This document shows, in pieces, positions 4,843 to 53,000 of a stretch of DNA of 64,000 nucleotides. The position numbers and the translations under genes were made by a program. The notes under the pieces are model-generated. The model was not told where the DNA came from, ran no database searches, and worked only from the letters and a program-made list of their open reading frames with translations. Origin of the DNA: an uncultured Candidatus Saccharibacteria bacterium. GTDB taxonomy: Bacteria; Patescibacteriota; Minisyncoccia; Phycocordibacterales; GWA1-40-21. Location of the stretch: positions 19,222-83,221 of the forward strand of contig CAZLRP010000002.1 of NCBI GenBank assembly GCA_964562105.1, in the 5' to 3' direction. The stretch's first letter is position 1, and the number at the start of each line of letters is the position of its first letter.

Positions 4843-5529
4843 CTACTTACTTTTTCTCCACTCATCAATCAATTTATGATTTCCTGACAACAGAACTTTT
4901 GGAACACGATATTTTTTACCTTTATATTCCAAAACTTCAGGTCTTGTATAAATCTCACCGCTTGAAATTCTTCCTTCTTCAAGCGAAGCTTTGTTCCCAA
5001 GCACACCATCTATCTGTCTTGAAACACAATCCATGATAATCATTGCTGGAAGTTCGCCACCTGTGAGGACAAAATTTCCTACGGAAATTTTGTCCGTTTT
5101 GAATATTTTATTCACTCTTTCATCAATTCCTTCATATCTTCCGGAAATAATTATAATATCGGAATACTTTTTTGCAGATTCTTTTGCATAAGTGGTATCA
5201 AATTGTTTTCCTCTTGGACTTAAAAATATAATTTTGTATTTTGACTTTCCACTTTTAACTTTCAACTTTATAACTCTTAAGGCTTTTTCCAAAGCTTTAA
5301 GCACCGGTTCTGCTTGCATTACCATTCCTGGACCTCCACCATAAGGAATATCATCTACTCTTTTGTATGGCTTGTCTTTTTCTTTTTGCACTTTTGTAAC
5401 TTTTGCAAAATCACGTGGATTATAAAAAACTACCTTGATTTTCTTTTCTTTTATCGCGCGTGCCAAAATAGACTCATTTAAATATGAGCTGAAAGCCTCC
5501 GGAAATAATGTGATTATGTGAAATGTCAT
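4843..5529 (-). CDS. trmD: tRNA (guanine37-N1)-methyltransferase TrmD
   Basis: MTFHIITLFPEAF...DIPYGGGPGMVM...IISGRYEGIDERV. Start taken at the MTFHII Met; the ORF track extends to 5550. Confidence 0.9.
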   Translation of the reverse strand: MTFHIITLFPEAFSSYLNESILARAIKEKKIKVVFYNPRDFAKVTKVQKEKDKPYKRVDDIPYGGGPGMVMQAEPVLKALEKALRVIKLKVKSGKSKYKIIFLSPRGKQFDTTYAKESAKKYSDIIIISGRYEGIDERVNKIFKTDKISVGNFVLTGGELPAMIIMDCVSRQIDGVLGNKASLEEGRISSGEIYTRPEVLEYKGKKYRVPKVLLSGNHKLIDEWRKSK

Positions 5530-7531: not shown

Positions 7532-9604
7532 ATGCTTATTTCACAAATGAAAAAGAATAACAAATTCTGGAAAGAGAGAAGAAAAGACAACCGAAAGACT
7601 GAACACTCTGGCAAATTAAGGATTCTAAGTGGTAAAATCAAAGCCATCCGAGGACATACAGCCTATTTTATATCTGATATAAATAATATTTCAGTCGAAA
7701 TTTCTACAAGACAGATAAATACTGCAATGGCTGGAGATAAGGTTGAAATTAAGTTATTTAAAAAAAATAAAGCTGGGGTCCACGAAGGTGAAGTGGTAAA
7801 AATTCTAAGTCGCGCAAAAAATTATTTTGTCGGAACTATTGAATTGTCTGCCAAAGGTGTACTTGTGATTCCAGATGATAGAAGAATTAAAATTTCAGTA
7901 AAAATTACCCCGGAAAAAGCCATCGATTTAAAAAACAAGGATAAGGTTAGGGTAAAAATAATAAAATGGGTAGAAGCCCCTGCGTTTTCCGAAGGAGAGA
8001 TTGTAACTGTTTTAGGCAAAAAAGGAGATAATTCCACCGAGATGAATTCTATTGCGATAGATAAAGGTTTTGATATAGATTTTCCCGCGCAGGTTTTACA
8101 GGAATCCAAAAATATTTTCAATCAAAGCGCAAAAATTTCTTCCGAAGAAATCGCAAAGAGAAAAGATTTGAGAAATACGCTTACCTTTACGATTGACCCA
8201 AAAACTGCAAAAGATTTTGACGATGCAATTTCCTTTAAAAAACTCTCGAATGGAAATTTTGAAATTGGGGTTCATATCGCCGATGTATCTCACTACGTCA
8301 CAGAAAAAAGCGAGCTAGACAAAGAAGCTTATAAGCGAGGATGTTCCGTGTATCTTCCCGATAGAACGATCCCTATGCTTCCCTTTGAGCTTTCTGATAA
8401 CCTCTGCAGTTTGAGCGAAGGAGATGAAAAACTCGCCTTTTCAGCTATTTTTGAAATTAATCCTCATGCAAAAGTACTTTCAAAATGGTTTGAAAAATCT
8501 GTCATAAAATCTGCAAAAAGATTCACTTATGAAAGTGCCCAAGAAATTTTGAATGCAAAAACAGGTCAGCACTTTGAAGAGCTTAATACATTAAATAAAA
8601 TTGCAAAACTTTTGAGACGTGAAAAATTCCAAAAAGGCGCGATAGATTTTGAACAGGAAGAAATAGCTTTTGAACTAGACGAGGCTGGAAAACCTATAAA
8701 AATTTACAAAAAACAAAGACTTGATACTCACAAACTAGTTGAAGAATACATGCTTCTTGCAAACAAAGAAGTTGCTGAATATGTCTATAAATTTGAGAAA
8801 AAGTCCGGTAAACTGTTCCCTCTTCCGTATCGTATTCACGATTTTCCAGACAAAGATAGAATTTCCGAGCTCGCAGTTTTTGTAAAAGCTTTGGGACATG
8901 AGCTTATTATCGGAAAAACAGGAAGCATTACAGGAAAAGATATGCAGGCACTTTTTGCTCAAGTAGAAGGAAAAGCTGAAGAATCACTTGTAAAAACTGC
9001 TGCGATTCGCTCAATGTCAAAAGCAATCTACTCAACAAAAAATATCGGACATTTCGGACTGGCCTTTGAATATTACGCACACTTCACCTCGCCTATCAGA
9101 AGATATCCTGATCTTTTGGTTCACAGGATTTTGCAAAAAATACTTAGCAAAGACCGCAGTCAAATAAAAAGCCAATTTGACGGGGCAAGAAATATCGCCC
9201 ACGAAAAGTCTGCTGACCTCGTGGCAAGAGAAATAAATCTGGTATTTTACGAGAAAGCTTGTTCACACAGTACAGATCAAGAAATAAAAGCTTCCGAAGC
9301 AGAACGTGACGGAAGAAAATACAAACAAATAGAATATATGCAAGATAAAGTTGGAAAAACTTTTGACGGTATTATTACCGGCGTCACTGAATGGGGTATT
9401 TATGCGGAAGATTCGCAAACTAGAGCGGAGGGTATGATAAAGCTTTCTTCACTCGGAGATGACTTCTATAAACTTGATGCAAAAACTTATTCTGTAATCG
9501 GAGAAAAAACAAAACAAGTTTATTCGCTTGGACAAAAAGTAAAAATTAAACTAGTTTCTGCAGATTTAGACAAAAAGCAGATGGATTATGAAATAATTAG
9601 CTAA
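7532..9604 (+). CDS. rnr: Ribonuclease R (RNB-family 3'-5' exoribonuclease with C-terminal S1 domain)
   Basis: Cold-shock/OB N-terminus, RNB motifs (HFGLAFEYYAHFTSPIRRYPDLLVHR) and a C-terminal S1-like domain. Confidence 0.9.
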   Translation: MLISQMKKNNKFWKERRKDNRKTEHSGKLRILSGKIKAIRGHTAYFISDINNISVEISTRQINTAMAGDKVEIKLFKKNKAGVHEGEVVKILSRAKNYFVGTIELSAKGVLVIPDDRRIKISVKITPEKAIDLKNKDKVRVKIIKWVEAPAFSEGEIVTVLGKKGDNSTEMNSIAIDKGFDIDFPAQVLQESKNIFNQSAKISSEEIAKRKDLRNTLTFTIDPKTAKDFDDAISFKKLSNGNFEIGVHIADVSHYVTEKSELDKEAYKRGCSVYLPDRTIPMLPFELSDNLCSLSEGDEKLAFSAIFEINPHAKVLSKWFEKSVIKSAKRFTYESAQEILNAKTGQHFEELNTLNKIAKLLRREKFQKGAIDFEQEEIAFELDEAGKPIKIYKKQRLDTHKLVEEYMLLANKEVAEYVYKFEKKSGKLFPLPYRIHDFPDKDRISELAVFVKALGHELIIGKTGSITGKDMQALFAQVEGKAEESLVKTAAIRSMSKAIYSTKNIGHFGLAFEYYAHFTSPIRRYPDLLVHRILQKILSKDRSQIKSQFDGARNIAHEKSADLVAREINLVFYEKACSHSTDQEIKASEAERDGRKYKQIEYMQDKVGKTFDGIITGVTEWGIYAEDSQTRAEGMIKLSSLGDDFYKLDAKTYSVIGEKTKQVYSLGQKVKIKLVSADLDKKQMDYEIIS

Positions 9605-13518: not shown

Positions 13519-13655
13519 ATCCGCACACTAATTCTATCATCGTTGCATCGTGTTCTTAATATCAGTAAATATTATGTTGTTTATTAAGTAAGTTTAATTT
13601 TATATAACTAATCTCTCTGCGCAACAAAAACACAATGATAGAGTTAGTGTGCGGA
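13519..13655. repeat. Family-A palindromic element copy 1 (about 137 bp; termini CCGCACAC...GTGTGCGG with 35-nt arm complementarity)
   Basis: Left arm tccgcacactaattctatcatcgttgcatcgtgtt and right arm gcaacaaaaacacaatgatagagttagtgtgcgga. The right 35 nt are identical to the copy at 52862-53000. The element overlaps the last 4 codons and stop of the nusB-Nudix gene and ends 22 nt before the rnc start codon. Confidence 0.7.
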
Positions 13656-15081: not shown

Positions 15082-15516
15082 TTAGATTCTGAATGTTTTA
15101 TCAACCCGTGACATATCGTCAACAGCTTTGATAAATGCTTTCTGGTAGTTCATAAAGAGTTTTGCTAAAAATTCTTTAGGAGCCCATAAACAGATTTTCA
15201 ACGTTTCTTCGTTTGTTCTTTTTACAATTATTTCTTCACCGGGGACTATTTTTCCGGAGATTTCAGTAACCAAAAAAAATACTTTATTATTCTCTCCGTC
15301 TTCCCGATAAACTTCTCGAAATTTTATAGGGGTTAATTTTTTGTTTGTATTTCCCAAAAATTCTCGTACAAGTGTTTGATCAAACCTTTCTGGATATTTT
15401 CCATATCCTCCCAAAGGCTTCACCTTATCGGGGTCTCTAATATCAGTAGCTCCCAGTATATACCATGCGCCTCCTATCCTAATGATACAAAATGCCACAC
15501 AATACCAACTTTTCAT
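15082..15516 (-). CDS. Nudix-fold paralog with a degenerate Nudix box (likely catalytically inactive)
   Basis: WYILGATDIRDPDKVKPLGGYGKY...VREFLGNTN aligns with the neighbour's WKVLGATDSRFPNDAKIPGGTNKD...KREFYEETG, but the REx2EE glutamates are lost. Confidence 0.5.
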   Translation of the reverse strand: MKSWYCVAFCIIRIGGAWYILGATDIRDPDKVKPLGGYGKYPERFDQTLVREFLGNTNKKLTPIKFREVYREDGENNKVFFLVTEISGKIVPGEEIIVKRTNEETLKICLWAPKEFLAKLFMNYQKAFIKAVDDMSRVDKTFRI

Positions 15517-21042: not shown

Positions 21043-21079
21043 AAACATACGAATATACAAATATTACTAATGGTACAAA

Positions 21080-21158
21080 TGGCTACAAATAATTAATTCG
21101 TTTCGAATTTATTCGTAGCCATTCGTATCATTCGCATAATTCGTTAATTCGTAATAAC
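21080..21158 (+). promoter_or_regulatory. ATTCGTA heptamer direct-repeat array (motif copy A) in the thrS 5' region
   Basis: attcgtt..attcgtagcc attcgtatc attcgcata attcgtta attcgtaa with about 9-10 bp spacing, plus a flanking near-IR ATGGCTACAAATAA / TTATTCGTAGCCAT. Homologous to 29404-29449 and 36193-36250. Confidence 0.55.
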
Positions 21159-21169
21159 ATCATAAAAAT

Positions 21170-22960
21170 ATGGAAAACGAAAAATTACACAGAATGAGAC
21201 ACTCGCTCGCCCACATACTTGGCGCAGCTGTTATCGAATTGTATCCTGATGTAAAAATAGCAACAGGTCCAGCAATTGAAAACGGTTTTTATTATGATTT
21301 TGATTTTTCCGCACCGATTACAGACAAAGACCTTGGAAAAATTGAGCAAAAAATACGTGAACTTTCAAAAAAAATAAAATCTTTTGATAAAGCAGAAATT
21401 TCGGAGAATGATGCAAAGAAACTTTTCGCAGACAATCCATATAAACTTGAGCTTATAGATGAATATGCAAAAGACGGAAAAACTCTTACTGCTTATACTT
21501 CGGGAGATTTTACAGACCTTTGCGCAGGCCCTCACGTAGAAAGTATGGATGAAATTAAAAATAGCGCTTGGAAACTTGAAAGGCTTGCCGGAGCATATTG
21601 GAAAGGAGATGAAAACAATAAAATGCTTACAAGAATTTACGGCTTAGCATTTCCAACAAAAGAAGAACTTGATGCATACGAAAAACAACAAGAAGAAGCT
21701 AAGAAAAGAGATCATAGAAAGCTTGGAAAAGATTTAGATCTTTTTCACATGGATGAAAAAGTTGGGCTCGGTCTCCCTTTATGGCATCCAAAAGGAGCTA
21801 TGCTATGGAGAATCATTGAAGATTTTTGGTATCAGGAGCATCTCAAAAATGACTACGATTTAGTAAGAAGCCCGCATATAGGTAAAAAAGAATTATGGGA
21901 AACATCAGGTCATTGGGGTTTTTATAATTCAAGCATGTATCCTCCGCTTGAAGCAGGACAAACATTGAAAGAAAAACAGGAAGGTAAAAAAATTGAACAT
22001 TCTGAGGAATACTTACTTAAACCAATGAATTGTCCTTTTCATGTTCAGATATATAAAAACAGTCCAAAATCCTACAGAGAATTCCCTTTCAGATGGGCAG
22101 AATGTGGAACGGTTTACAGATTTGAGAAAAAAGGTGAACTTTCCGGACTAACTAGAGTAAGAGGATTCACACAAGACGACGCACACATACTTTGTAGAAA
22201 AGATCAGGTTGAAGATGAATTAAAAAGAGTCATTGATTTTATTTTATTTATTTATAAATCTTTTGGTTTTGATATTAGTTCAGTAAAGGTATTTCTTTCT
22301 TTGAGAGATCCAAATAATAAAGAAAAATATGCCGGTAATGATGAAGGTTGGGATTTTACTGAAGAAGTTTTAAGAAAAGTTGCCATAGAGAAAAAACTTG
22401 ATTTTGCAGAAGAAAAAGGAGAAGCGGCATTTTATGGACCAAAACTTGATTTTAAAGTCAAAGATGCTCTAGGAAGATTGTGGCAATGTTCCACACTACA
22501 ATTTGATTTTAATTTGCCTGAAAGATTTGATCTAACATTCATGAATTCAAAAAGCGAACAAGAAAGACCATACATGCTTCATAGAGCTCTCTTTGGAAGC
22601 TTTGAAAGATTTATAGGACTACTCATTGAACATTATTCTGGTGCATTCCCTCTCTGGCTCGCACCCGTGCAAATAAAAATAGTTCCGATAAGAGAAAATC
22701 ATAACGAGCATGCAGAAAAAATTTCTAAGGAACTAAAAGATGCTGGGTTCAGAGTAGATTGCGATACAAAAGAAGGAAATATGGGAGGAAAAGTTCGCGA
22801 TGCAAAAAATAATAAAATTCCTTATACGATAATCATCGGAGACAAAGATATTGAAGCTAAAAAAATATCAGTGGAATCAAGAGATAAAGGACAGCTCGGT
22901 CAGATGGATTTGAAAGATTTTATTGAAAAGATTGAAAAAGAAAAGGAAAACAGAGAGTAA
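21170..22960 (+). CDS. thrS: Threonyl-tRNA synthetase (lacks N-terminal TGS domain)
   Basis: HSLAHILGAAV editing-domain start, class-II core (FRWAECGTVYRFE, GFTQDDAHI), C-terminal anticodon-binding domain. Confidence 0.9.
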   Translation: MENEKLHRMRHSLAHILGAAVIELYPDVKIATGPAIENGFYYDFDFSAPITDKDLGKIEQKIRELSKKIKSFDKAEISENDAKKLFADNPYKLELIDEYAKDGKTLTAYTSGDFTDLCAGPHVESMDEIKNSAWKLERLAGAYWKGDENNKMLTRIYGLAFPTKEELDAYEKQQEEAKKRDHRKLGKDLDLFHMDEKVGLGLPLWHPKGAMLWRIIEDFWYQEHLKNDYDLVRSPHIGKKELWETSGHWGFYNSSMYPPLEAGQTLKEKQEGKKIEHSEEYLLKPMNCPFHVQIYKNSPKSYREFPFRWAECGTVYRFEKKGELSGLTRVRGFTQDDAHILCRKDQVEDELKRVIDFILFIYKSFGFDISSVKVFLSLRDPNNKEKYAGNDEGWDFTEEVLRKVAIEKKLDFAEEKGEAAFYGPKLDFKVKDALGRLWQCSTLQFDFNLPERFDLTFMNSKSEQERPYMLHRALFGSFERFIGLLIEHYSGAFPLWLAPVQIKIVPIRENHNEHAEKISKELKDAGFRVDCDTKEGNMGGKVRDAKNNKIPYTIIIGDKDIEAKKISVESRDKGQLGQMDLKDFIEKIEKEKENRE

Positions 22961-23008
22961 AAAAGGCGGTTCTGCGCAGCTTTATGCGAAGCAGAACCGC
23001 CTTTTTTA
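22961..23008. terminator. Intrinsic terminator ggcggttctgcgcagctttatgcgaagcagaaccgcc (near-identical copy at 24858-24894)
   Basis: 11-bp GC-rich stem flanked by A-run and T-run, after the thrS stop. Confidence 0.7.
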
Positions 23009-23016
23009 TTACTTTT

Positions 23017-24813: not shown

Positions 24814-24852
24814 AAATAGAAGGTAGAATATAGGATATAGAAAATATAAATA

Positions 24853-24900
24853 CAAAAGGCGGTTCTGCGTAGCTTTATGCGAAGCAGAACCGCCTTTTGT
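24853..24900. terminator. Intrinsic terminator ggcggttctgcgtagctttatgcgaagcagaaccgcc (1-nt variant of the 22965-23001 hairpin)
   Basis: Between convergent genes 23773..24813(+) and gyrB(-). Confidence 0.7.
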
Positions 24901-24942
24901 ATTTTGCATTGAATTTCCTATCTTCTACCTTTTACATTCTGT

Positions 24943-29378: not shown

Positions 29379-29403
29379 GATTGATCTGGTATTTAAATTT
29401 AAT

Positions 29404-29449
29404 TATTTGTAGCCATTTGTATCATTCGAATAATTTGTATATTCGTATG
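29404..29449 (+). promoter_or_regulatory. ATTCGTA/ATTTGTA heptamer array (motif copy B) between pheS and pheT
   Basis: ttatttgtagccatttgtatcattcgaataatttgtatattcgtatg. Same order and orientation on the + strand as copy A. Confidence 0.5.
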
Positions 29450-29456
29450 TTCATCT

Positions 29457-30221
29457 TCAAAATTGATTTACCAACCTCAAATCCCCTGAGTAAAACAGTC
29501 TGATATCATCTATCCCGTATTTCATCATTGCCAATCGTTCCACAGAACCACCGAAGGCAAAACCTGTCCATTCATCCGGATTTATTCCAACATTTTTCAA
29601 AACTTTCGGATGCACAATTCCCGCTCCCATTACTTCCACCCAGCCGGTTCCTTTGCATACTGGGCAACCAGCCTCTCCCCCGTTGCATTTAAAACAAGAA
29701 ATATCTATTTCCGCCCCAGGCTCAACAAACGGAAAATAACTTGGCCTGAATCTGACATTAATATCTTTTTCAAAAAATTTATCAAAAAAAACGTTTACGA
29801 CAGACTTAAGGTTTGCCAAAGAAACATTTTTATCTACATACAAACCTTCAAATTGTTGGAACTGCATTTCATGCGTAGCATCAGTCGCTTCTTTTCTATA
29901 AACTTTACCTGGACAAATTATTCTAAAAGGAAGTTTTTTATTTTCTTCCATAAAATGAACTTGCATCGGGCTTGTGTGCGTTCGCAATAATTTATTTTCC
30001 ACACCAGGCGAATTTTTATTCGGTTTGACCCAAAAAGTATCCTGCATATCTCTTGCTGGGTGATCCTTAGGAACATTTAGAGCATCGAAGTTGTAATATT
30101 CCGTTTCCAATTCTGGTCCATCAGTAAGAGTGAATCCCATTTCAAAAAAAATCTTATTGATGTCGTTTATCACTCGGGTAATCGGATGAACATGTACGGT
30201 TTTTTTGTCCAAATTTTGCAT
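29457..30221 (-). CDS. pheS: Phenylalanyl-tRNA synthetase alpha subunit
   Basis: Class-II motifs ...FRPSYFPFVEPGAE...GFAFGGSVERLAMMKYGIDDIRLF. Confidence 0.9.
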   Translation of the reverse strand: MQNLDKKTVHVHPITRVINDINKIFFEMGFTLTDGPELETEYYNFDALNVPKDHPARDMQDTFWVKPNKNSPGVENKLLRTHTSPMQVHFMEENKKLPFRIICPGKVYRKEATDATHEMQFQQFEGLYVDKNVSLANLKSVVNVFFDKFFEKDINVRFRPSYFPFVEPGAEIDISCFKCNGGEAGCPVCKGTGWVEVMGAGIVHPKVLKNVGINPDEWTGFAFGGSVERLAMMKYGIDDIRLFYSGDLRLVNQF

Positions 30222-30268
30222 AACCCCAATTATACAGAATTTTTACCTTTTTGCATCATATATGTTGT

Positions 30269-30339
30269 GCCATTCCCGTGAAAACGGAAATCTAGATTGA
30301 ATTAAATTAATTTTGGATTCCCGTTTTCACGGGAATGGC
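30269..30339. repeat. Family-B REP-like palindromic element copy 1 (GCCATTCCCG...CGGGAATGGC)
   Basis: Outer IR plus two internal ATTCCCG-loop-CGGGAAT hairpins and the shared core AATCTAGATTGAATTAAATTAATTTTGGATTCCC. Confidence 0.7.
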
Positions 30340-30345
30340 AGATGT

Positions 30346-32514: not shown

Positions 32515-32587
32515 GCCACCTTAGCTCAGTTGGTAGAGCAACGCTTTTGTAAAGCGAAGGTCCCCAGTTCAAGTCTGGGAGGTGGCT
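32515..32587 (+). tRNA. tRNA-Thr (anticodon TGT)
   Basis: Cloverleaf: acceptor GCCACCT/AGGTGGC, D-arm GCTC-AGTTGGTA-GAGC, anticodon loop TTTGTAA, T-arm CCCAG-TTCAAGT-CTGGG. No encoded CCA. Confidence 0.85.
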
Positions 32588-33843: not shown

Positions 33844-33920
33844 AAATAATAAGTTTAAAAGTTGAAAGTTATAAAGTTAACACAAAAAAATAAAATCAAA
33901 CAAATACGGGAGCAATTATA

Positions 33921-35951: not shown

Positions 35952-36191
35952 CTATTTACCCGTTTTATTTTTTTTAATTTTTTTAACAGACGCTTTTGTT
36001 GCTCTGGCCTTGAATTTTTCCACTCTGCCTGCTGTATCTAAAACTTTTTCATTTCCGGTATAAAATGGGTGACAATTGCCACAAATTTCCACACTAATAG
36101 TCTCTTTGGTTGAACCAAAGTCATACGTCGCTCCGCAAGCGCAAACTGTTTTCGCTTTATTAAAATATTTTGGGTGTATATCTTTTTTCAT
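35952..36191 (-). CDS. rpmE: 50S ribosomal protein L31
   Basis: MKKDIHPKY...CACG...[10 protein letters not shown]. Confidence 0.9.
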
Positions 36192-36192
36192 G

Positions 36193-36250
36193 TTACGAAT
36201 TATTATACTAATATACGAATTTATGCGAATGATACGAATGGCTACAAATA
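36193..36250 (-). promoter_or_regulatory. ATTCGTA heptamer array (motif copy C) abutting the rpmE start codon
   Basis: Reverse complement reads tttgtagccattcgtatcattcgcataaattcgtatattagtataataattcgtaac-ATG, nearly identical to copy A upstream of thrS. Confidence 0.55.
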
Positions 36251-36371
36251 TACACCATACGAACTATTCAGATGCAAGAATAGTACATTATTTTATAAAA
36301 AATACAAGAGCGGTTTTGGCTTCGCCAAAACCGCTCTTGTATTTTTTATTTTTCCTAAAAACTAGGACCTA

Positions 36372-40445: not shown

Positions 40446-40591
40446 TATTTACCCGAGAAAATTTTTGCCAATAAAAATTGTTTGTTTGACTTAATAACTT
40501 ACATCTATTATATCACATGACATAACAAAATTTGTACGTAGTAGAAACAACTAATTTTTAACAAACATTGGCAAAAACTTTAACGGGTGAA
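40446..40591 (-). repeat. Family-C TIR cassette copy (reverse orientation) abutting the fba start codon
   Basis: Ends atttacccgagaaaatttttgccaa (40446-) and ttggcaaaaactttaacgggtgaac (-40591). In gene sense the proximal end reads ...gcaaaaattttctcgggtaaataat-ATG. Confidence 0.65.
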
Positions 40592-40609: not shown

Positions 40610-40642
40610 AAAAGCGGGTTTTGGGCAAAGCCCAAAACCCGC
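40610..40642 (-). terminator. Terminator agcgggttttgggc-aaa-gcccaaaacccgct
   Basis: 14-bp stem 3' of the DUF1653 gene. Confidence 0.55.
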
Positions 40643-40648
40643 TCCAAT

Positions 40649-41293: not shown

Positions 41294-41305
41294 AATTTTT
41301 TAATT

Positions 41306-41376
41306 GTCATTCCCGTGCAGACGGGAATCCAGAATTAGTTTAATACAACCTAGATTCCCGCATCCGCGGGAATGAC
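41306..41376. repeat. Family-B REP-like element copy 2 (inverted core orientation), 12 bp upstream of the SET-gene start
   Basis: gtcattcccgtgcagacgggaatccagaattagtttaatacaacctagattcccgcatccgcgggaatgac. Confidence 0.7.
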
Positions 41377-41381
41377 ACACA

Positions 41382-42854: not shown

Positions 42855-42967
42855 AATTAAAATAAAATTATTAATTTATACAGTTAATTATATCTTTTCT
42901 ATTTATGTATGGCAATGTTTTACAAGACAGAGTAAAAATTCACACGGAACAGGTATTCTGCTATACT

Positions 42968-43107
42968 TGACCCGTTAAAGTTTTTGCTGATGTGTTGAAA
43001 ATGAGAAGAAAAATAATTATCTTTTTTAAAGATAGTTTCTAGTAAAAATTTTATTTAATCGTTTAACATCAACACATTTTTGTCAGCAAAAATTTTCTCG
43101 GGTAAAT
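42968..43107 (+). repeat. Family-C TIR cassette copy abutting the asnB start codon
   Basis: Left end tgacccgttaaagtttttgctga and right end tcagcaaaaattttctcgggtaaat are mutual inverted repeats. Contains an internal palindrome atcttttttaaagat and a TTGTCA-17-TAAATT promoter-like pair at the proximal end. Confidence 0.65.
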
Positions 43108-43110
43108 TTT

Positions 43111-44970
43111 ATGTGTGGAATTGCCGGGACTGTGAGTCCCGAAATAAAAGAAAAAGATAGTGTTATACGAGAAATGATTTCTCGCATTTTTCATCGTGGA
43201 CCAGATGATGACGGTTTTTTTGTGGACGAGAATATTGCTTTGGGTATGCGCAGATTGTCTATAATAGATATTTCTACCGGTAAACAACCTATATGGTCGC
43301 AAGATAAAAAGAAAGTTATATTTTTTAATGGTGAAATTTATAATTATCTCGAACTCCGTAAAGAATTGATTTCAAAAGGCCATATTTTTGATACACATGG
43401 CGACACAGAAGTTATCTTGCACATGTATGAAGAATATGGAGAAAAAATGCTTACCCAGCTACGAGGTATGTTTGCATTTTGCATATATGACAAAGAAAGC
43501 AAAGCTGTTTTTCTGGCACGAGATTTTTTCGGAATAAAACCGCTTTATTATCTTAAAGATGCCGAAAAAATAGTTGCGTTCTCGTCTGAAATAAAAAGTT
43601 TTTTGTCTTACCCAGGATTCAAAACCGTGGTCAATGATTCAGCTGTCTACAATTATTTATCATTCCAATACAATCCACTTCCCGAAACTTTTTTCAAATC
43701 CGTTTATAAGCTTCCTCCTGCCCACTGCATGAAAATTGACTTAAAAAATGGAAGCGTGGAAATTAAAAAATATTGGTCATACGAAATTAAGCCAGATGAA
43801 AATTTGGAAGAGATTGAGACCACAAAAAAAATCCACGAAACTATACGAGATTCAGTAGAACATCACATGATTGCAGATGTTCCCGTCGGCTCTTTTCTTT
43901 CTGGCGGAATTGACAGTAGTATTATTGCCACGATGATGCAGGAAATCCGTGGAGGCAACCCCAGTCAAATAAAAAGCCAATTTGACGGGGCAAGAAAAAT
44001 TAAAACTTTTACAGTTGGTTTTGATACACTAACAGAAGGCGTAGAATCAAAAGAAACATCAGATTTTCTTGGCACAGATCATACAGAAATAAAAATCGGG
44101 CCTGAAGAATATTTTAATATTCTTCCAAAAGCCGTATATCACTTTGATGAGCCCGTCGCCGATCCTTCCGCTATTGGGCTTTATTTTGTAGCCCGTGAAG
44201 CAAAAAAACATGTCAAAGTTGTACTTTCTGGTGAGGGGGCTGATGAACTTTTCGGCGGATATAATATATATCTTGCACCTTTTGCTTACAAAAAAATATC
44301 TTGGATTCCTAAAAGCTTTTTGAAAATAATTTTAAAAATACCATTTGAATTTTTTGGAAAAAACTATATTCGCCGCGCGAGCGACTTGCTTTCAAACTGG
44401 TATGTAGGCAACGCTTCAATATTTAAAGATTTTGAGCGAGATTTGTTGTGGAAAAAACAAGTTGAACAAAAATATTCCCTTTCGCCATTTTATGAACATG
44501 TAAAAAATTTGAGTGATTCTACGCAAATGCAATATATTGATGTTTCTACTTGGCTCATTGGAGACATCCTGGCAAAAGCTGATAAAATGACAATGGCAAA
44601 TTCATTGGAGCTTCGCGTGCCTTTTTTGGATAAGAAAGTTTCAGATTTGGCCTCCACTTTGCCAGATAAATTTAAATGGCGTAAAGGCGTGACTAAATAC
44701 CTTTTGCGAGAGGCATTTAAGAATGTAATCCCCGAGAGCACCCGCAATAGAAAAAAGCTTGGTTTTCCAACACCAATTCGCGATTGGTTCACCGAAGACA
44801 GACAAGATTTATACCAGAAAATATACGACTGTAAATACATAAGAGAGCATATGAATGTTGAATATATTAAAAAAATTGTGGAAGATCATATAAATAAAAA
44901 AATCGATAACTCCAGAAAAATATATTTACTTTTAATGCTCGCTTTGTGGTTTGAGGTATTTGTTAAATAA
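43111..44970 (+). CDS. asnB: Asparagine synthase (glutamine-hydrolysing)
   Basis: MCGIAG N-terminal nucleophile, SGGIDSS PP-loop. Confidence 0.9.
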   Translation: MCGIAGTVSPEIKEKDSVIREMISRIFHRGPDDDGFFVDENIALGMRRLSIIDISTGKQPIWSQDKKKVIFFNGEIYNYLELRKELISKGHIFDTHGDTEVILHMYEEYGEKMLTQLRGMFAFCIYDKESKAVFLARDFFGIKPLYYLKDAEKIVAFSSEIKSFLSYPGFKTVVNDSAVYNYLSFQYNPLPETFFKSVYKLPPAHCMKIDLKNGSVEIKKYWSYEIKPDENLEEIETTKKIHETIRDSVEHHMIADVPVGSFLSGGIDSSIIATMMQEIRGGNPSQIKSQFDGARKIKTFTVGFDTLTEGVESKETSDFLGTDHTEIKIGPEEYFNILPKAVYHFDEPVADPSAIGLYFVAREAKKHVKVVLSGEGADELFGGYNIYLAPFAYKKISWIPKSFLKIILKIPFEFFGKNYIRRASDLLSNWYVGNASIFKDFERDLLWKKQVEQKYSLSPFYEHVKNLSDSTQMQYIDVSTWLIGDILAKADKMTMANSLELRVPFLDKKVSDLASTLPDKFKWRKGVTKYLLREAFKNVIPESTRNRKKLGFPTPIRDWFTEDRQDLYQKIYDCKYIREHMNVEYIKKIVEDHINKKIDNSRKIYLLLMLALWFEVFVK

Positions 44971-45617: not shown

Positions 45618-45849
45618 TTTACCCGTTAAAGTTTTTACTAACGCATTTTTGTCTTTACAAATAAAGTTAAGTAGACTAGATTAAATAAAACATAATTATC
45701 TGAATAGTCTTGCTGTGTTTAAAATGACAAAAATGCAAAAAAGTTAGTTTTGAGTTAAGATATTACTTGTAATATAAATGTTTGATAAATTAAGTAAGTT
45801 AGATATAGTCACTACTAACTTTTTTATTAGTAAAAATTTTTTCGGGTAA
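45618..45849 (+). repeat. Family-C TIR cassette copy (about 232 bp) abutting and overlapping the mraY start codon
   Basis: Left end tttacccgttaaagtttttactaa and right end ttagtaaaaattttttcgggtaaat(g)ATG. Confidence 0.65.
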
Positions 45850-46899
45850 ATGATGATCAACGCTTTAAAAGTCGTAATTCCCTCTGTTTTAACATTCTTT
45901 TTGGGTATTTTAATAACGCCTTTTTTCACCAATTTTTTCTACAAATACAAAATGTGGAAGAAATCTTCACGAACAGAAGCCGGCACTACGGAAGAATTTG
46001 CAAAAGTACATAACACAAAAGGTGAGCTTTCCACTCCCCGAGTCGGTGGAGTAATTATATGGGTATCGGTATTGCTTACAATCGGCATAATATATCTGCT
46101 TTCAATTCTTTTTCCGACAGATCTGACTGAAAAATTAAATTTCCTCAGTCGCAACCAAACACTTGTGCCTCTTGTCGCATTTATATTTGCATCTTTAATT
46201 GGACTCGCAGATGACATGTTGCAAATAATGGGAAAAGGCAGTTATGCAAAAGACAGTTTAATCTACAGAAAAATAAAAATAATCGTTGTAACGCTTATCG
46301 GCTTGATTATCGGTTTTTGGTTTTATAATAAACTTGAAGTAAGTTCTATTTATATGCCTTTTCTTGGAGATATAAATCTTGGCTTGTGGTTTATTCCATT
46401 TTTCATTACAGTTATGTTAGCCACATTTTCAACTAGCGTTATTGATGGAATTGACGGACTTTCAGGAGGGGTGCTAACAAGCGCTTTTACCGCATATGCA
46501 ATTATAGCTTTTGCAAACAATCAGATAGATATAGCTGCTTTTTGTGCCGTCATTGCAGGTGGAACATTAGCCTTCCTTTGGTTTAATATTCCTCCGGCTA
46601 GATTTTATATGGGAGAAACGGGAATACTTGGTCTTACCATTGTACTTTCTGTAATTGCTTTTATGACTGATGCAGTCGTAGTTCTTCCTATCATCGCTTT
46701 ACCTTTGGTTTTGACATCCGCTTCGGTCATTATACAAATGATTTCTTATAAATATTATAAGCGCAGAGTTTTTCGCGTAGCTCCACTGCATCATCACCTT
46801 GAAGCAATCGGCTGGTCAAAAGAAAAAGTTGTGATGCGTTATTGGATAGTCAGTGCTGTTTTTGCAATAATCGGAGTGATTGTAGCTCTCGTAAGCTAA
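45850..46899 (+). CDS. mraY: Phospho-N-acetylmuramoyl-pentapeptide transferase
   Basis: 10-TM protein with LADDMLQ and VAPLHHHLE motifs. Confidence 0.85.
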   Translation: MMINALKVVIPSVLTFFLGILITPFFTNFFYKYKMWKKSSRTEAGTTEEFAKVHNTKGELSTPRVGGVIIWVSVLLTIGIIYLLSILFPTDLTEKLNFLSRNQTLVPLVAFIFASLIGLADDMLQIMGKGSYAKDSLIYRKIKIIVVTLIGLIIGFWFYNKLEVSSIYMPFLGDINLGLWFIPFFITVMLATFSTSVIDGIDGLSGGVLTSAFTAYAIIAFANNQIDIAAFCAVIAGGTLAFLWFNIPPARFYMGETGILGLTIVLSVIAFMTDAVVVLPIIALPLVLTSASVIIQMISYKYYKRRVFRVAPLHHHLEAIGWSKEKVVMRYWIVSAVFAIIGVIVALVS

Positions 46900-49083: not shown

Positions 49084-49094
49084 ATTTGTTTTGT

Positions 49095-49162
49095 GTCATT
49101 CCCGTGTAAACGGGAATCTAGGTTGAATTTTAATAATGGATTCCCGCATTCGCGGGAATGAC
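49095..49162. repeat. Family-B REP-like element copy 4, 11 bp upstream of the gatB start codon
   Basis: gtcattcccgtgtaaacgggaatctaggttgaattttaataatggattcccgcattcgcgggaatgac. Confidence 0.7.
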
Positions 49163-49290
49163 AATACAAAAATACAAATAAATAATAGCATAAAAATTAT
49201 AAAATGAGCTTCATTTTTATCCTTGACAAAAGATTTATAATGAGGTACAATTCACAAGTAGCTAAATTTGTTCTTCAAAAGGAGAAAAAC

Positions 49291-49488: not shown

Positions 49489-49522
49489 AGCGGTATCTTT
49501 TATGAGGAGATGCCGCTTTTTT
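49489..49522 (+). terminator. Intrinsic terminator agcggtatc-ttttatgaggag-atgccgct + T6 (identical copy at 50011-50046)
   Basis: 9-bp stem including one G-T pair, followed by a T-run. Confidence 0.65.
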
Positions 49523-49616
49523 AATTACATTTTTATCCATTTTTACAACTTGATAATACAATTATAATAATGTAGAGTTTTGCTAGATAGTTATATTTTA
49601 ACAAAGGAGGTATTTT

Positions 49617-50010: not shown

Positions 50011-50046
50011 AGCGGTATCTTTTATGAGGAGATGCCGCTTTTTTTA
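50011..50046 (+). terminator. Intrinsic terminator, exact duplicate of 49489-49522
   Basis: aagcggtatcttttatgaggagatgccgctttttttatt. Confidence 0.65.
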
Positions 50047-50055
50047 TTGTACACT

Positions 50056-50126
50056 GTCATTCCCGCGGAGGCGGGAATCTAGGTTGAATTAAATTAATTC
50101 TGGATTCCCGCCTGCACGGGAATGAC
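50056..50126. repeat. Family-B REP-like element copy 5 (most complete)
   Basis: gtcattcccgcggaggcgggaatctaggttgaattaaattaattctggattcccgcctgcacgggaatgac. Just 3' of the obg stop. Confidence 0.7.
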
Positions 50127-50133
50127 ACACGAT

Positions 50134-51147
50134 TTATTTTATAGCTCTTAGTATTTTAATCAGATTATCTTTCAGCCCTTTTATAGATTGGTCATCCAAA
50201 ACCGTCACAGTCAAAATGTTAGGATTTAACTTTGACATTTTTTTTATCGCTTGAGCTATTTTCTTATCTGCGTAAAGTCCGCGTGAAGTCCGCGTTTTTT
50301 CCGCGTCTTCCAGCAAATCTTTCTTTGTAAGGATTAGAACTTCTTTTTTTTCTGCGAGTTCTTCGCTGTAAACTTTGAGCTCATTTCTGATGACTTTGTA
50401 ATCTTTTACCAAATCTTCGCTATCAAGAGAAAGACAATGAAGCAAAGTTTTTGTCCTTTTTATATGTCTCAGAAATTTATGTCCAAGTCCCTTTCCTTCT
50501 GAAGCGCCTTCTATGAGTCCAGGAATGTCAGCCAAAATATAGCCATGCATATCTCCAAGCGAAGGTTCAAGCGTTGTAAATTGGTAAGCTCCGATTTTTG
50601 ATTTTGAATTGGTAAGGACATTTATCAAACTGGATTTTCCTGCATTTGGAAGCCCGATAAGCCCCGCATCAGCTACAAGTTCAACTTCAATGGAAAAATC
50701 CGCTTCTTCCGCAGATTTTCCGTCAGTTTGGTTTTCCGGAGATCTATTTACGGCATTTTTAAAATATTCGTTTCCAAGACCTCCCTTTCCGCCATTTAGT
50801 ATTTTTATTTTCTCGTCATCAGTAACCAGATTGAATTTTTCTCTTGTTTCAAGATTGGTAACGACAGAACCGATAGGTACATCTATTATCAAATCCGCGC
50901 CATTTTTTCCATGCATGCTTTTTTTCATTCCGTCTTCTCCTTTTTCTGCAATAAATTCTTTTGTATTTTTATATCTTGCAAGCACAGCAATATCGCGAAT
51001 GGCGCGTAAATATACATCGCCACCTTTTCCTCCATTTCCACCTGCAGGACCTGCTCTATCAATTCCCTTCTCGTGCCTCCAACGCACAACTCCGTTTCCT
51101 CCGTACCCGGCAGATATATGTATTTTTAATTCATCTATAAAAGCCAT
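50134..51147 (-). CDS. obg: GTPase Obg
   Basis: Obg fold FIDELKIHISAGYGGNG..., G-domain GLPNAGKSSL. Confidence 0.9.
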   Translation of the reverse strand: MAFIDELKIHISAGYGGNGVVRWRHEKGIDRAGPAGGNGGKGGDVYLRAIRDIAVLARYKNTKEFIAEKGEDGMKKSMHGKNGADLIIDVPIGSVVTNLETREKFNLVTDDEKIKILNGGKGGLGNEYFKNAVNRSPENQTDGKSAEEADFSIEVELVADAGLIGLPNAGKSSLINVLTNSKSKIGAYQFTTLEPSLGDMHGYILADIPGLIEGASEGKGLGHKFLRHIKRTKTLLHCLSLDSEDLVKDYKVIRNELKVYSEELAEKKEVLILTKKDLLEDAEKTRTSRGLYADKKIAQAIKKMSKLNPNILTVTVLDDQSIKGLKDNLIKILRAIK

Positions 51148-51176
51148 AATTAGTTATAAAGTTAAAAGTTATAATG

Positions 51177-51521
51177 TTATAAAGTTTTAATAAAACCAGA
51201 TAATAATCTTGAGATATCCAAGGATAGATCGTTCAATCCTGTATATTCTTTATTATCTATATATTTCAAATCTTTAGCTAATGAAAGCATGGATCTTACT
51301 TCCGCACAAGAACCTTTCGCTATATAAAAAAACTGAATAATTTCTTTATTACTTTTTCTCTCAAATCCTTCGGCGATATTATTCATAATTGAAACCCCAG
51401 CTCTTTGTATTTGATCTTTAAATGAGTAATCTTTAGAAAACTTAAAAATACAATGGACTTGCAAAGTCAAAACTTTCGCTTTTTGCCAAGCTATAATATC
51501 TTCAAATTTCTCTATCTTCAT
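51177..51521 (-). CDS. Four-helix-bundle protein (23S rRNA IVS-protein family)
   Basis: FEDIIAWQKA...QIQRAGVSIMNNIAEGFERKSNKE...IAKGSCAEV. Confidence 0.65.
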   Translation of the reverse strand: MKIEKFEDIIAWQKAKVLTLQVHCIFKFSKDYSFKDQIQRAGVSIMNNIAEGFERKSNKEIIQFFYIAKGSCAEVRSMLSLAKDLKYIDNKEYTGLNDLSLDISRLLSGFIKTL

Positions 51522-51543
51522 TTGTATTTAAACTTTATAACTT

Positions 51544-52455
51544 TCAACTTTGTACTTTATAACTTGCAAGCGCGAGCTTCGCGAGCGCGATTGCTCCCTC
51601 TTTTGACTTTGCCACGGCGACGAATCTGTCATTATGACAAAAAATTGCGCCTGAAACTCCTGTTATTTTTTCCAAATCTCCGTCTCTTTTTCCAGACCAA
51701 CTTTCTGGAAAATATATTCTTCTTTCAAATTTTGCATCAATTTTTACAACAGCTTCAACGCTCCAAGTCTTATTTGGTTTTGGAGATATTACAAAAAGCG
51801 GCTCAGAATAACTAACAACAGTTTTTTTCCATGAATAATTGTCATCTAAAATAATAATTCGCTTATCTTCAGTTTTTTTATATATGTCCCGAACAATTTC
51901 AATAGCAATATAATTATCTTTTGCACGTTTTATTTCTCTTAAAAGCATTTTTTTAACTTCTTTCACAGCAAATAAGAATGATTTTAAATGATCTCCCTTT
52001 TCTCTCCATGTAGGGTTAAGTGCATGCACATAATCAAAAAAAGAATATGGCGATATTTTTTCGAAAATATTTTTATATATTTCTACACCACTATCTTCAG
52101 CATCTACTGGTTGAATTATTTTTTCATCAATTTTATCTGCTATTTCTTGAGAGTCAGCTATTTTTTCTCCATACTCTTTCCATACTAGACCGCTAGTGGC
52201 ATAAGGAATGCCATTTCCCCTTTTTTTATTCCAACCTTCCTCATGATGATCAAACTTATTTGTTTTTGGATTATATTCTCCTCCGACATCCAGAACGAAA
52301 TCCATATCTGATAAAATTTTCTTATTTCTTGTCCTAAAAATTTTTAATGGTTTTTTTAAATATAAAGATAAAATCGCTACAGAAAATACATCGTCCGGGT
52401 GAAACCTTCCGTCATGAACCGCGACTTTTATTTTTTTACTTTTTCGTAATGTCAT
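51544..52455 (-). CDS. MYG1/UPF0160-family metal-dependent hydrolase
   Basis: VAVHDGRFHPDDVFSVAIL resembles the MYG1 GTHxGxFHxDE motif. Confidence 0.6.
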   Translation of the reverse strand: MTLRKSKKIKVAVHDGRFHPDDVFSVAILSLYLKKPLKIFRTRNKKILSDMDFVLDVGGEYNPKTNKFDHHEEGWNKKRGNGIPYATSGLVWKEYGEKIADSQEIADKIDEKIIQPVDAEDSGVEIYKNIFEKISPYSFFDYVHALNPTWREKGDHLKSFLFAVKEVKKMLLREIKRAKDNYIAIEIVRDIYKKTEDKRIIILDDNYSWKKTVVSYSEPLFVISPKPNKTWSVEAVVKIDAKFERRIYFPESWSGKRDGDLEKITGVSGAIFCHNDRFVAVAKSKEGAIALAKLALASYKVQS

Positions 52456-52861: not shown

Positions 52862-53000
52862 GTCCGCACACCAACTCTATCATCGTTACATTGTGTTTAC
52901 AGTATCATTAAACGTCAACTTTTATTTACTAAGAAAATTTGCTTTTATTTTACAAATCTCCTTTAGCAACAAAAACACAATGATAGAGTTAGTGTGCGGA
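52862..53000. repeat. Family-A palindromic element copy 2 (about 139 bp)
   Basis: Left arm tccgcacaccaactctatcatcgttacattgtgtt; right 35 nt identical to copy 1. Ends about 10 nt before the start codon of gene 52436..52852. Confidence 0.7.

Follow-up and report, generated by a model that had tools for sequence, protein, structure and literature searches.

Small palindromic repeats are known from several bacterial lineages. The Correia elements of Neisseria, also termed Neisseria miniature insertion sequences (NEMIS), are defined by a 26-bp inverted repeat, a TA duplication, and an integration host factor (IHF) site, and their cleavage by RNase III has been reported; the Rickettsia palindromic elements (RPEs) are selfish palindromes that insert where they are least harmful, including in frame. 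We know of no enzyme encoded by RPEs, and of no preference on their part for the interval between promoter and ATG. The prokaryotic transposase chemistries known to us are DDE, DEDD, HUH, serine, tyrosine, and Cas1. Here we describe a palindromic element, termed family C, from a stretch of 64,000 nucleotides (hereafter the window) of contig CAZLRP010000002.1, assigned to an uncultured Candidatus Saccharibacteria bacterium. Three copies lie directly 5' of asnB, an mraY-like gene, and fba, and we consider it probable that they are non-autonomous derivatives, resembling miniature inverted-repeat transposable elements (MITEs), of a tiny GIY-YIG nuclease element of Paceibacteria-type Patescibacteria, a group of ultra-small bacteria. 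Family C as a whole comprises a selfish nuclease gene bounded by inverted repeats, along with derivatives that lack its open reading frame (ORF); it has moved recently, and it occupies gene-sense slots between promoter and ATG. The origin of these cassettes in a nuclease mini-gene is the key fact that lay beyond the view of an earlier reading of this DNA, made from the letters alone (the sequence-only reading).

That reading had described three loci with common inverted-repeat ends, at lengths of about 140, 232, and 146 nt. All three were located, with lengths refined to 140, 233, and 144 nt, and are given here with the signals that surround them (positions are those of the window):

42968-43107, forward strand: family-C copy 5' of asnB, 140 nt, ORF-less, probable MITE-like derivative; left arm 42968-42992, right arm 43083-43107, relic stop TAA 43103-43105, asnB ATG at 43111
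45619-45851, forward strand: family-C copy 5' of the mraY-like gene, 233 nt, nuclease-gene deletion derivative; relic TAA 45847-45849, host ATG at 45850
40447-40590, reverse strand: family-C copy 5' of fba, 144 nt, ORF-less; fba ATG 40443-40441
35953-35976, reverse strand: possible degenerate right-end remnant, AAAATAAAACGGGTAAAT, a 3-mismatch match and weak evidence of an end
42959-42967, forward strand: extended -10 box TGcTATACT (TGCTATACT), adjoining the left end of the asnB copy
40507-40517, reverse strand: extended -10 box TGTGATATAAT within the fba copy, in its apical part
40611-40645, reverse strand: strong terminator just upstream of the fba copy

A left 16-mer, ACCCGTTAAAGTTTTT, and a right 20-mer, AAAAATTTTYTCGGGTAAAT, occur exactly in all three copies. 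With up to three mismatches allowed, the window contains seven matches to the left motif (0.35 expected) and five to the right motif (0.26 expected), counts that were reached in none of 100 shuffles for either motif. The possible remnant sits 5' of a gene whose ortholog at L012 (loci outside the window are given as L plus a number) bears a 233-nt copy. The placement that had been claimed, in gene-sense orientation directly 5' of the start codons of unrelated housekeeping genes, holds for every copy, with 0-3 nt between the end and the ATG: the ATG lies 3 nt 3' of TAAAT at asnB and fba, and overlaps it (TAA/ATG) at the mraY-like gene. According to Pfam, the downstream genes encode an asparagine synthase, a GT4/MraY-type transferase, and a class-I aldolase. 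The interiors of the three copies vary in both sequence and length and hold only 12-23 open codons in the frame of the terminal TAA, with no complete ORF. Several of the features by which MITEs are recognized are present, namely a length below ∼600 bp without a complete ORF, terminal inverted repeats, many dispersed copies, and filled/empty polymorphism; in addition, a longer relative with the same ends encodes an enzyme, an 89-amino-acid (aa) GIY-YIG protein, whose role as a transposase is putative.

This full-length element is 301-303 bp long and consists almost wholly of the one gene. In the 301-nt class, the frame of the terminal TAA holds 89 codons (MQYVYVLQSKK..YTGCTKDL..RL.LHN..YYEAY..NREKYMKTQYGRNYIKKVLSNFFISKNFLG, then the stop), and the ORF starts ∼33 nt from the left end, within GCATT-ATGCAATAT. 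The 5' untranslated region, ATT(C/A)ACCCGTTAAAGTTTTTRCYRA, is an imperfect inverted repeat of the last 12 codons plus stop (TYRGYAAAAATTTTCTCGGGTAAAT), so that the right repeat of the element is the end of the gene itself (ATT AGT AAA AAT TTT CTC GGG TAA), and the nuclease TAA directly precedes the host ATG. The protein matches the Pfam family PF01541 (GIY-YIG) above its cut-off (E = 5e-14), with a catalytic domain at residues 2-73 followed by a 16-aa tail, and is annotated at NCBI as 'GIY-YIG nuclease family protein' (236 clusters). Among 11 intact copies from various loci and metagenome-assembled genomes (MAGs), the median proportions of nonsynonymous (pN) and synonymous (pS) differences are 0.09 and 0.53, with a dN/dS ratio of 0.10. 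Residues Y16, G18, R26, H30, N31, and E50 are invariant along with others, and the catalytic Y, Y-x-G, R, H-N, and E are present. An AlphaFold2 model of the 89-aa protein has a predicted local distance difference test score (pLDDT) of 89. The closest solved relative found by phmmer is the UPF0213 structure 1ZG2 (BH0048; E = 2.4e-4, the E-values being modest), and Foldseek also ranks 1ZG2 first, followed by Slx1 (probability 1.0, template modeling (TM) score 0.59-0.65), with a TM score of 0.47 for I-TevI. Intact copies precede at least eight different genes, and at least two are found in single genomes.

The copies in the window can be set against this gene piece by piece. In the mraY copy the nuclease ATG is gone (GCATTTTTG) and ∼68 nt are deleted, while the C-terminal relic ..NFFISKNFFG is kept up to its stop. 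It is a member of a 213-244-nt class that retains the 5' and 3' ends along with a middle block (..TGCAAAAAAGTTA, codons HNAKKV), and that shares the ∼68-nt deletion; the copies at L074 and L012 have the same deletion, and the orthologous mraY locus carries intact copies at L081 and L104. Between the 140-nt class and intact copies, ∼27 nt are shared at the left end and ∼46 nt at the right, and a profile of the intact element (nhmmer) matched both ends of the asnB copy. Conservation of the proximal end is explained by its coding role: in full-length copies it specifies the nuclease C-terminus (..ISKNFLG) and the TAA. In one short subfamily, a conserved 27-codon upstream ORF ends at the same TAA; it has possibly been kept for translational coupling, but these copies are related, and the probability of a frame open by chance is not small.

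Family C is widespread beyond the window, as a search of other genomes with the terminal repeat revealed. We scanned 185,579 species genomes with the right-end 20-mer. More than 110 stretches were among the matches listed, nearly all of them from Patescibacteria/Paceibacterota MAGs, and family-C ends occur more than 100 times in ∼15 Patescibacteria/Paceibacteria MAGs among these same matches. At least 15 right-end matches lie on a single 733-kb contig, and at least 18 in another MAG. The few matches in unrelated phyla are without a left partner (∼8 chance matches were estimated), and viral contigs gave zero matches to the 20-mer. A left motif is found upstream in 108 of 121 right-end matches, delimiting size classes of ∼134-146 nt (most copies), 165-185 nt, 213-244 nt, and exactly 301 nt (nine copies); ORF-less copies number ∼10 per intact copy. 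Contig JAGVNG010000033.1 (L039), which carries family C and orthologs of Paceibacteria genes, is labeled Nanoarchaeota, and the CAYPMZ and CAYZNH MAGs, with the same contents, are labeled Saccharibacteria; such off-phylum labels are probably due to mis-binning or loose record taxonomy.

Placement is equally consistent outside the window. The terminal AT together with the next G forms the ATG of a long ORF in 84 of 122 matches, and among two-ended copies this is the host ATG in 82 of 108 (76%), while 101 of 108 have an ATG-initiated open frame within 40 nt downstream in the same orientation. At the other end, 39 of 105 copies have a box that agrees with TATAAT in at least 5 of 6 bases (20 perfectly) directly at the left boundary, whereas any other offset from 1 to 24 gives 1-7 copies; the element therefore fills the interval from the -10 box to the start codon. 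Among the genes downstream are MurJ, ComM, TrmD, PilB/C, HolB, MurG, MraY, FtsW, RNase J, Clp, Adk, and RuvA, and the 95 genes in this position range over cell wall synthesis, pili, replication, RNA decay, and glycolysis, a diversity from which it follows that they form no regulon.

Recent movement is evident from two pairs of copies. Those at L083 and L104, on contig JAVHRR010000033.1, are identical at 300 of 301 positions, and those at L086 and L030, on contig CAWCTC010000001.1, at 300 of 303, yet in both pairs no more than 11-16 of 50 flanking positions agree, roughly the level of unrelated AT-rich DNA. The identity starts at (A)AT-T(A/C)A(C/T)CCG and stops at CGG(G/A)TAAA(T). Since copies that are 99-100% identical stand at different loci among unrelated flanks, the element has moved recently. 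That the ORF-less copies multiply too is indicated by deletion-derivative subfamilies with one shared deletion that precede different genes, and by short-copy subfamilies common to several loci. Some copies show further rearrangement: in the intact copy at L052:3371-3673 the outer repeat mismatch is swapped between the ends and so inverted relative to the ORF, meaning that the interior is inverted relative to the tips, and tandem or nested pairs of copies with 4 nt in common at the junction (CGGGTGAACCCG) occur at L065:4930-5294 and L013:1031-1209. The protein is annotated as a normal gene, and UPF0213 proteins are encoded by single-copy chromosomal genes in E. coli and Bacillus, both of which would fit an immobile host family of GIY-YIG paralogs that stand first in many operons and leave pseudogenes. 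We regard this as barely credible, given the sharp inverted-repeat boundaries, the near-identical copies with unrelated flanks, the excess of about ten ORF-less copies over each intact one, and a presence that varies among close relatives at precise promoter-to-ATG junctions.

These junctions can be seen at sites that lack the element, which are present at asnB, at fba, and at seven further genes of the window. Family C is absent from asnB in 17 of 17 relatives examined. The closest of these (L112, 83% aa identity) is empty and reads caagtattcTGCTATACT-gaattt-ATGTGTGGAATT, compared with caggtattcTGCTATACT-(140 nt)-ttt-ATGTGTGGAATT at the filled site in the window; the general form of the empty site is TGCTATACT-gaattt-ATGTGTGG. 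L125 is likewise empty (TGATATACT-gaaaac-ATG). Across the asnB relatives (63-83% aa identity), all except L123 and L124 have a -10 box (mostly GGTATACT) followed directly by a short, mostly 6-nt spacer and the ATG, which in nearly all of them is read as ATGTGTGG. The L104 ortholog of fba (80% identity) directly follows rpe, without the element. In the opposite direction, the seven further genes are empty in the window where their orthologs (76-88% aa identity) in other MAGs carry a copy: L083, for example, reads CTGTATAAT-(301 nt)-ATGCAAAAT where the window at 30221 (reverse strand) has CTGTATAAT-tggggtt-ATGCAAAAT. AT is found on both flanks in 64 of 117 copies, and, being self-complementary, may be the tip of the repeat. 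Neither a TNA nor an AT target duplication could be demonstrated from the flanks.

A free-standing homing endonuclease gene is a rival explanation of this pattern: it would pass only from allele to allele, by double-strand-break repair, and reach further loci through rare illegitimate events and gene conversion between copies, with the short copies decayed in place and immobile. GIY-YIG is a classic homing-endonuclease fold, orthologous loci are either filled or empty with no target-site duplication visible, the host spacer is replaced and not split, as expected if flanks are co-converted, and the size class at one locus differs from MAG to MAG (murG, mraY), in keeping with conversion among copies. 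We nevertheless judge this explanation unlikely, since a protein of 89 aa has no DNA-binding domain for a long homing site, at least 15-18 loci are occupied per ∼0.7-Mb genome, copies 99-100% identical stand at unrelated loci of one genome with an identity that stops exactly at the inverted repeats, and the subfamilies shared across loci indicate that ORF-less copies multiply.

The sequence-only reading had proposed a mobile or duplicated promoter/leader cassette. Mobility and duplication are borne out, and some copies do carry or adjoin promoters; the promoter that had been placed in the proximal end is not. The pair named there at asnB, TTGTCA-17-TAAATT, exists as a 9/12 match, of which the region has 25 against 20.4 ± 4.7 in shuffles, and it is geometrically impossible, in that a -10 box at TAAATT would start transcription 3' of the asnB ATG, which is fixed by its Met-Cys-Gly start. 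Instead, the 10/12 promoter TTCACA-17-TATACT with TG ends at the left boundary of the asnB copy, and its TGCTATACT box appears to be the ancestral leaderless asnB promoter, from which a transcription start at ∼42974 and a leader of ∼137 nt would be predicted. At fba, the upstream terminator means that the gene needs its own promoter; the internal TGTGATATAAT, a motif that at least 10 members of the fba-copy subfamily have at the same position of the alignment, is the likely candidate, with a predicted leader of ∼57 nt. The mraY-like gene probably depends on read-through or on a weak TGgTATGTT box. A Shine-Dalgarno sequence is missing from most first genes of the window, which instead have a TGnTATAAT 6-8 nt before the ATG, and leaderless mRNAs seem to be the norm for them. 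Leaderless-type starts are found, for example, at 30221 (reverse), 47546 (reverse), 6102 (forward), 12392 (reverse), and 1853 (reverse), and GGAG-type Shine-Dalgarno sequences mainly at internal operon genes.

It is against this background that an adaptive role, in which the element is a promoter/leader cassette spread by its usefulness, with a sigma70 promoter in the proximal arm and near-leaderless mRNAs, has to be weighed. The very consistent gene-sense position just 5' of start codons speaks for it, as do strong internal -10 boxes (TGTGATATAAT in the copies just mentioned, and TTGCAC-17-TATATT in the 237- and 301-nt classes) and the retention of copies at orthologous loci. We nonetheless consider it quite improbable. 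Besides the chance level and the impossible start of the named hexamers, the proximal arm is coding sequence plus stop in full-length copies; a perfect extended -10 box, 6 nt, and an ATG are in place at empty sites beforehand, and the host therefore gains no promoter; and near-identical copies with unrelated flanks, together with purifying selection on the ORF, point to a selfish element.

The potential for large hairpins, which had also been pointed out, is confirmed. The asnB copy folds into a hairpin of -42.6 kcal/mol (z = -7.4), the mraY copy adopts a three-way fold (z = -7.9), and the fba copy has z = -6.8. At the ends, ATT(C/A)ACCCGTTAAAGTTTTT plus five positions pairs with five positions plus AAAAATTTTCTCGGGTAAAT, interrupted by one 2 × 2 mismatch and one G.T. 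The outermost part of this terminal stem (P1) pairs ATTnACCCG with CGGGTAAAT up to the mismatch, which is of pyrimidines; inside it, AAAGUUUUU pairs with AAAAAUUUU, including an invariant G.U. For the five pairs just inside the TTTTT/AAAAA stretch (P2b), 495 cells out of 525 are Watson-Crick, six pair types being represented, and the remainder are 13 G.T, 9 A.C, and 8 others. Variants of P2b include GCCAA, GCTGA, ACTAA, GTTGA, GTCGA, and GCGAA, and compensatory variants are also found outside the search pattern (ATCCG/CGGAT, CTCTT/AAGAG). Long copies have an extra hairpin that holds the nuclease ATG (GCATTATGCAATAT/ATATTGCATAATGC) and a second helix, AAAAAAGTTAY/RTAACTTTTTT, that covaries even within the ORF. 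In the 140-nt class, an 8-mer of the right arm (Y') finds its complement in the left arm of its own copy in 93% of cases, compared with 30% in other copies, and a 7-mer (X') in 72% compared with 17%; the helices X:X' and Y:Y' cross in 46 of the 47 copies where both are possible, so that they are mutually exclusive. A hammerhead-like CUGAUGA in the left arm was rejected, since the bases concerned belong to a covarying stem (GCTGA, GCCAA, ACTAA), and an integron attC site (GTTRRRY) was rejected as well, with no inverse core present.

Folds of this stability, the covarying helices, the two mutually exclusive supported helices of the 140-nt class, and a predicted transcription start at the left end, by which the whole hairpin would be transcribed, all speak for a structured cis-regulatory RNA leader controlling translation (riboswitch-like, a thermosensor, an RNase III site, or a 5' stabilizer). 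Such a leader is, in our estimation, very improbable as the explanation of family C. A riboswitch or regulon was rejected on the functional diversity of the 95 downstream genes, which have no common pathway, and on the Rfam scan of the window, whose sole match is a tRNA (32515-32587), with no structured-RNA family at the family-C copies. Furthermore, the apical part is conserved in neither sequence nor length, the full-length form is a protein-coding gene, close relatives have the same genes without the element, and G.T is not in excess of A.C. A side effect at the RNA level, such as RNase III cleavage, may occur but would be secondary. It is possible that RNase III processing or hairpin breathing allows translation from an AUG that lacks a Shine-Dalgarno sequence and lies 3-11 nt after such a hairpin.

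Derivation from a mobile nuclease element is the explanation that we consider probable; several observations weigh against it. There is no intact nuclease gene in the 64-kb window, and the interiors of its copies show only a marginal resemblance to the ORF (z = 2.1-2.6; 4-12 of 300 shuffles scored as well); nhmmer matches their ends and not their interiors, and in the 140-nt class it is the two ends whose common descent is demonstrated, not what lies between them. No separate DNA-binding module is evident in the 89-aa protein. Among nine copies with a right dinucleotide other than AT, the left one matches it in one, which leaves no target-site duplication demonstrable, and filled sites lack some or all of the spacer present in empty orthologs, from which it follows that this is not simple insertion. 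The 13 G.T against 9 A.C in P2b do not separate constraint on RNA from constraint on DNA. Finally, orthologous loci such as murG and mraY retain copies in different MAGs, a persistence that would also fit a role of benefit to the host.

On the reading that we favor, derivation of the cassettes from the nuclease element, the host promoter would transcribe the nuclease gene in full-length copies and the host ORF would be translated right after the nuclease stop, the UAA-AUG junction being suggestive of termination-reinitiation. An Slx1-like, structure-specific nuclease may recognize the paired ends and cut at the base of the hairpin or cruciform, and the short copies presumably move, or moved, with nuclease supplied in trans. 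The copies in the window would now form the 5' leaders of asnB, the mraY-like gene, and fba: at asnB the ancestral -10 box would still drive a gene whose formerly leaderless mRNA has gained a hairpin leader, and fba would probably be driven by the extended -10 box within the element. A further step, which we offer tentatively and consider doubtful, is that the 303-bp unit could be an autonomous transposable element, about the smallest known, that represents a new enzymatic class: its sole protein, the 89-aa Slx1/UPF0213-like nuclease, would recognize not a sequence but the hairpin or cruciform of the element's own ends, and the element would insert into the melted DNA of open promoter complexes. 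This niche would be shared by three or more palindrome families unrelated to each other (A, B, C, and the L124 type), which would repeatedly turn leaderless genes into genes with long leaders. Insertion into open complexes would explain the -10 box at the left end, the ATG at the right end, and an orientation that follows transcription.

Other palindromes are present in the same genomes, and in other lineages (L123, L124) the slot between the -10 box and the ATG of asnB is occupied by other families. A second family, family A (TGTCATTCCCGYG...CGYGGGAATGACA), is mostly 73 nt long, with 21 unique copies in the window and loci together. Its copies in the window are:

30268-30340: family-A copy
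41305-41377: family-A copy
49094-49163: family-A copy
50055-50127: family-A copy

A 360-nt copy at L019:2016-2375 holds a 94-aa GIY-YIG ORF between two hairpin ends, and family A follows the same logic as family C. Its core, ATTCCC-N8-GGGAAT, resembles the dRS3 repeats of Neisseria. A third family (TCCGCACACTAAY...RTTAGTGTGCGGA, ∼136-168 nt) is present at 13520-13655 and 52863-53000 of the window and upstream of asnB in L123; at 13497 (reverse strand) it fills the slot held by family C in the L071 ortholog, and in L123 it lies within the 6-nt spacer between the -10 box and the ATG (GGGTATACT-aaa-(TCCGCACAC...GTGTGCGGA)-taa-ATG). No ORF-bearing copy of this family was present in the window and loci examined. 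Upstream of asnB in L124 (∼1320-1500), a palindromic element, CCCACACTAAG...CTTAGTGTCGGGG, sits inside the -10 box with TATAC on both sides, which looks like a 5-bp target duplication. A 32-nt palindrome, CC(C/G)CAGTCAAATAAAAAGCCAATTTGACGGGG, occurs in frame within asnB (43959-43990) and within a 690-aa ORF (7532-9604, at 9154-9185); it encodes ..SQIKSQFDGA.., and the same repeat forms the ends of an 85-aa GIY-YIG gene (L016:1004-1243). By analogy, the in-frame copies look like RPE-style insertions. The window also holds near-identical (94-97%), GC-rich, terminator-like hairpins at different gene ends (22958-23010 and 24851-24903; 49489-49526 and 50011-50048), as well as short intergenic repeats of the AACTTTATAACTTTCAACTTT and GTAGCCATTTGTATCATTCG types (5231-5288, 33844-33896, 51139-51174, and 51521-51565; also 21044-21139, 29399-29451, 36218-36266, and 15475-15512).

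An inverted-repeat-bounded, multi-copy unit with a GIY-YIG protein as its sole gene would extend the list of transposases given above, or reveal homing endonucleases that behave like transposons. Much of the intergenic palindromic DNA of these Patescibacteria genomes is explained by family C, as are many of the small genes annotated as GIY-YIG nucleases. The family also provides a natural experiment in translation initiation, in which leaderless genes (such as asnB, with TGnTATACT, 6 nt, and ATG throughout its clade) tolerate a hairpin of 140-300 nt or a whole upstream ORF interposed between transcription start and AUG. In practical terms, these repeats can give rise to annotation errors, such as spurious small ORFs and wrong starts, and to mis-assembled MAGs.

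No description of such an element was found in the searchable full-text literature, a coverage that leaves subscription journals aside, and family C fails the defining features of the closest known kinds. In sequence and structure the nuclease is best matched by UPF0213/YhbQ/Slx1, but UPF0213 proteins are without a known link to inverted repeats or mobility, Slx1 needs Slx4 and carries a RING domain, and the tail ..NFFISKNFLG, which doubles as the right repeat, is specific to the family-C nuclease. GIY-YIG homing genes (the seg genes of T4, and I-TevI for its catalytic domain) resemble family C in being selfish, in having a GIY-YIG nuclease as sole product, in lying between host genes and using host or adjacent expression signals, and in their patchy presence among relatives. 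They encode proteins of 200-250 aa with a separate DNA-binding domain and a single site, however, whereas family C encodes 89 aa between inverted-repeat ends, occupies many unrelated loci per genome with abundant ORF-less derivatives, and has a fold nearer to UPF0213/Slx1.

The insertion sequence (IS) family IS200/IS605, the repetitive extragenic palindromes with their tyrosine transposases (REP/RAYT), and the palindrome-associated transposable elements (PATEs) are similar in being tiny, with a small single-domain nuclease, hairpin ends, no target duplication, a strict orientation, and many ORF-less palindromic derivatives. The IS200/IS605 enzyme is an HUH/Y1 transposase, while no HUH gene was seen here, although no search was aimed at HUH; and the orientation of IS200/IS605 follows replication, whereas that of family C follows transcription, as at asnB (forward) and fba (reverse), which are 2.5 kb apart. 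Rickettsia palindromic elements are likewise selfish repeats of a reduced genome that occupy low-harm sites, including in frame within genes, a behavior shown here by the sister family in asnB at 43959-43990. The Correia/NEMIS MITEs are alike in being non-coding elements of 100-250 bp with inverted repeats of ∼25 bp, size classes that arise by internal deletion, and dozens of copies per genome; they too lie beside genes, are co-transcribed as long hairpins, in some cases provide promoters, and vary in presence among strains. The ends of family C differ from theirs in sequence and show no TA duplication, its parent is a 303-bp GIY-YIG unit and not an IS with a DDE transposase, and it is far more position-specific, always in gene-sense orientation between the -10 box and the ATG, with its terminal AT forming part of the host start codon in the proportion of copies given above.

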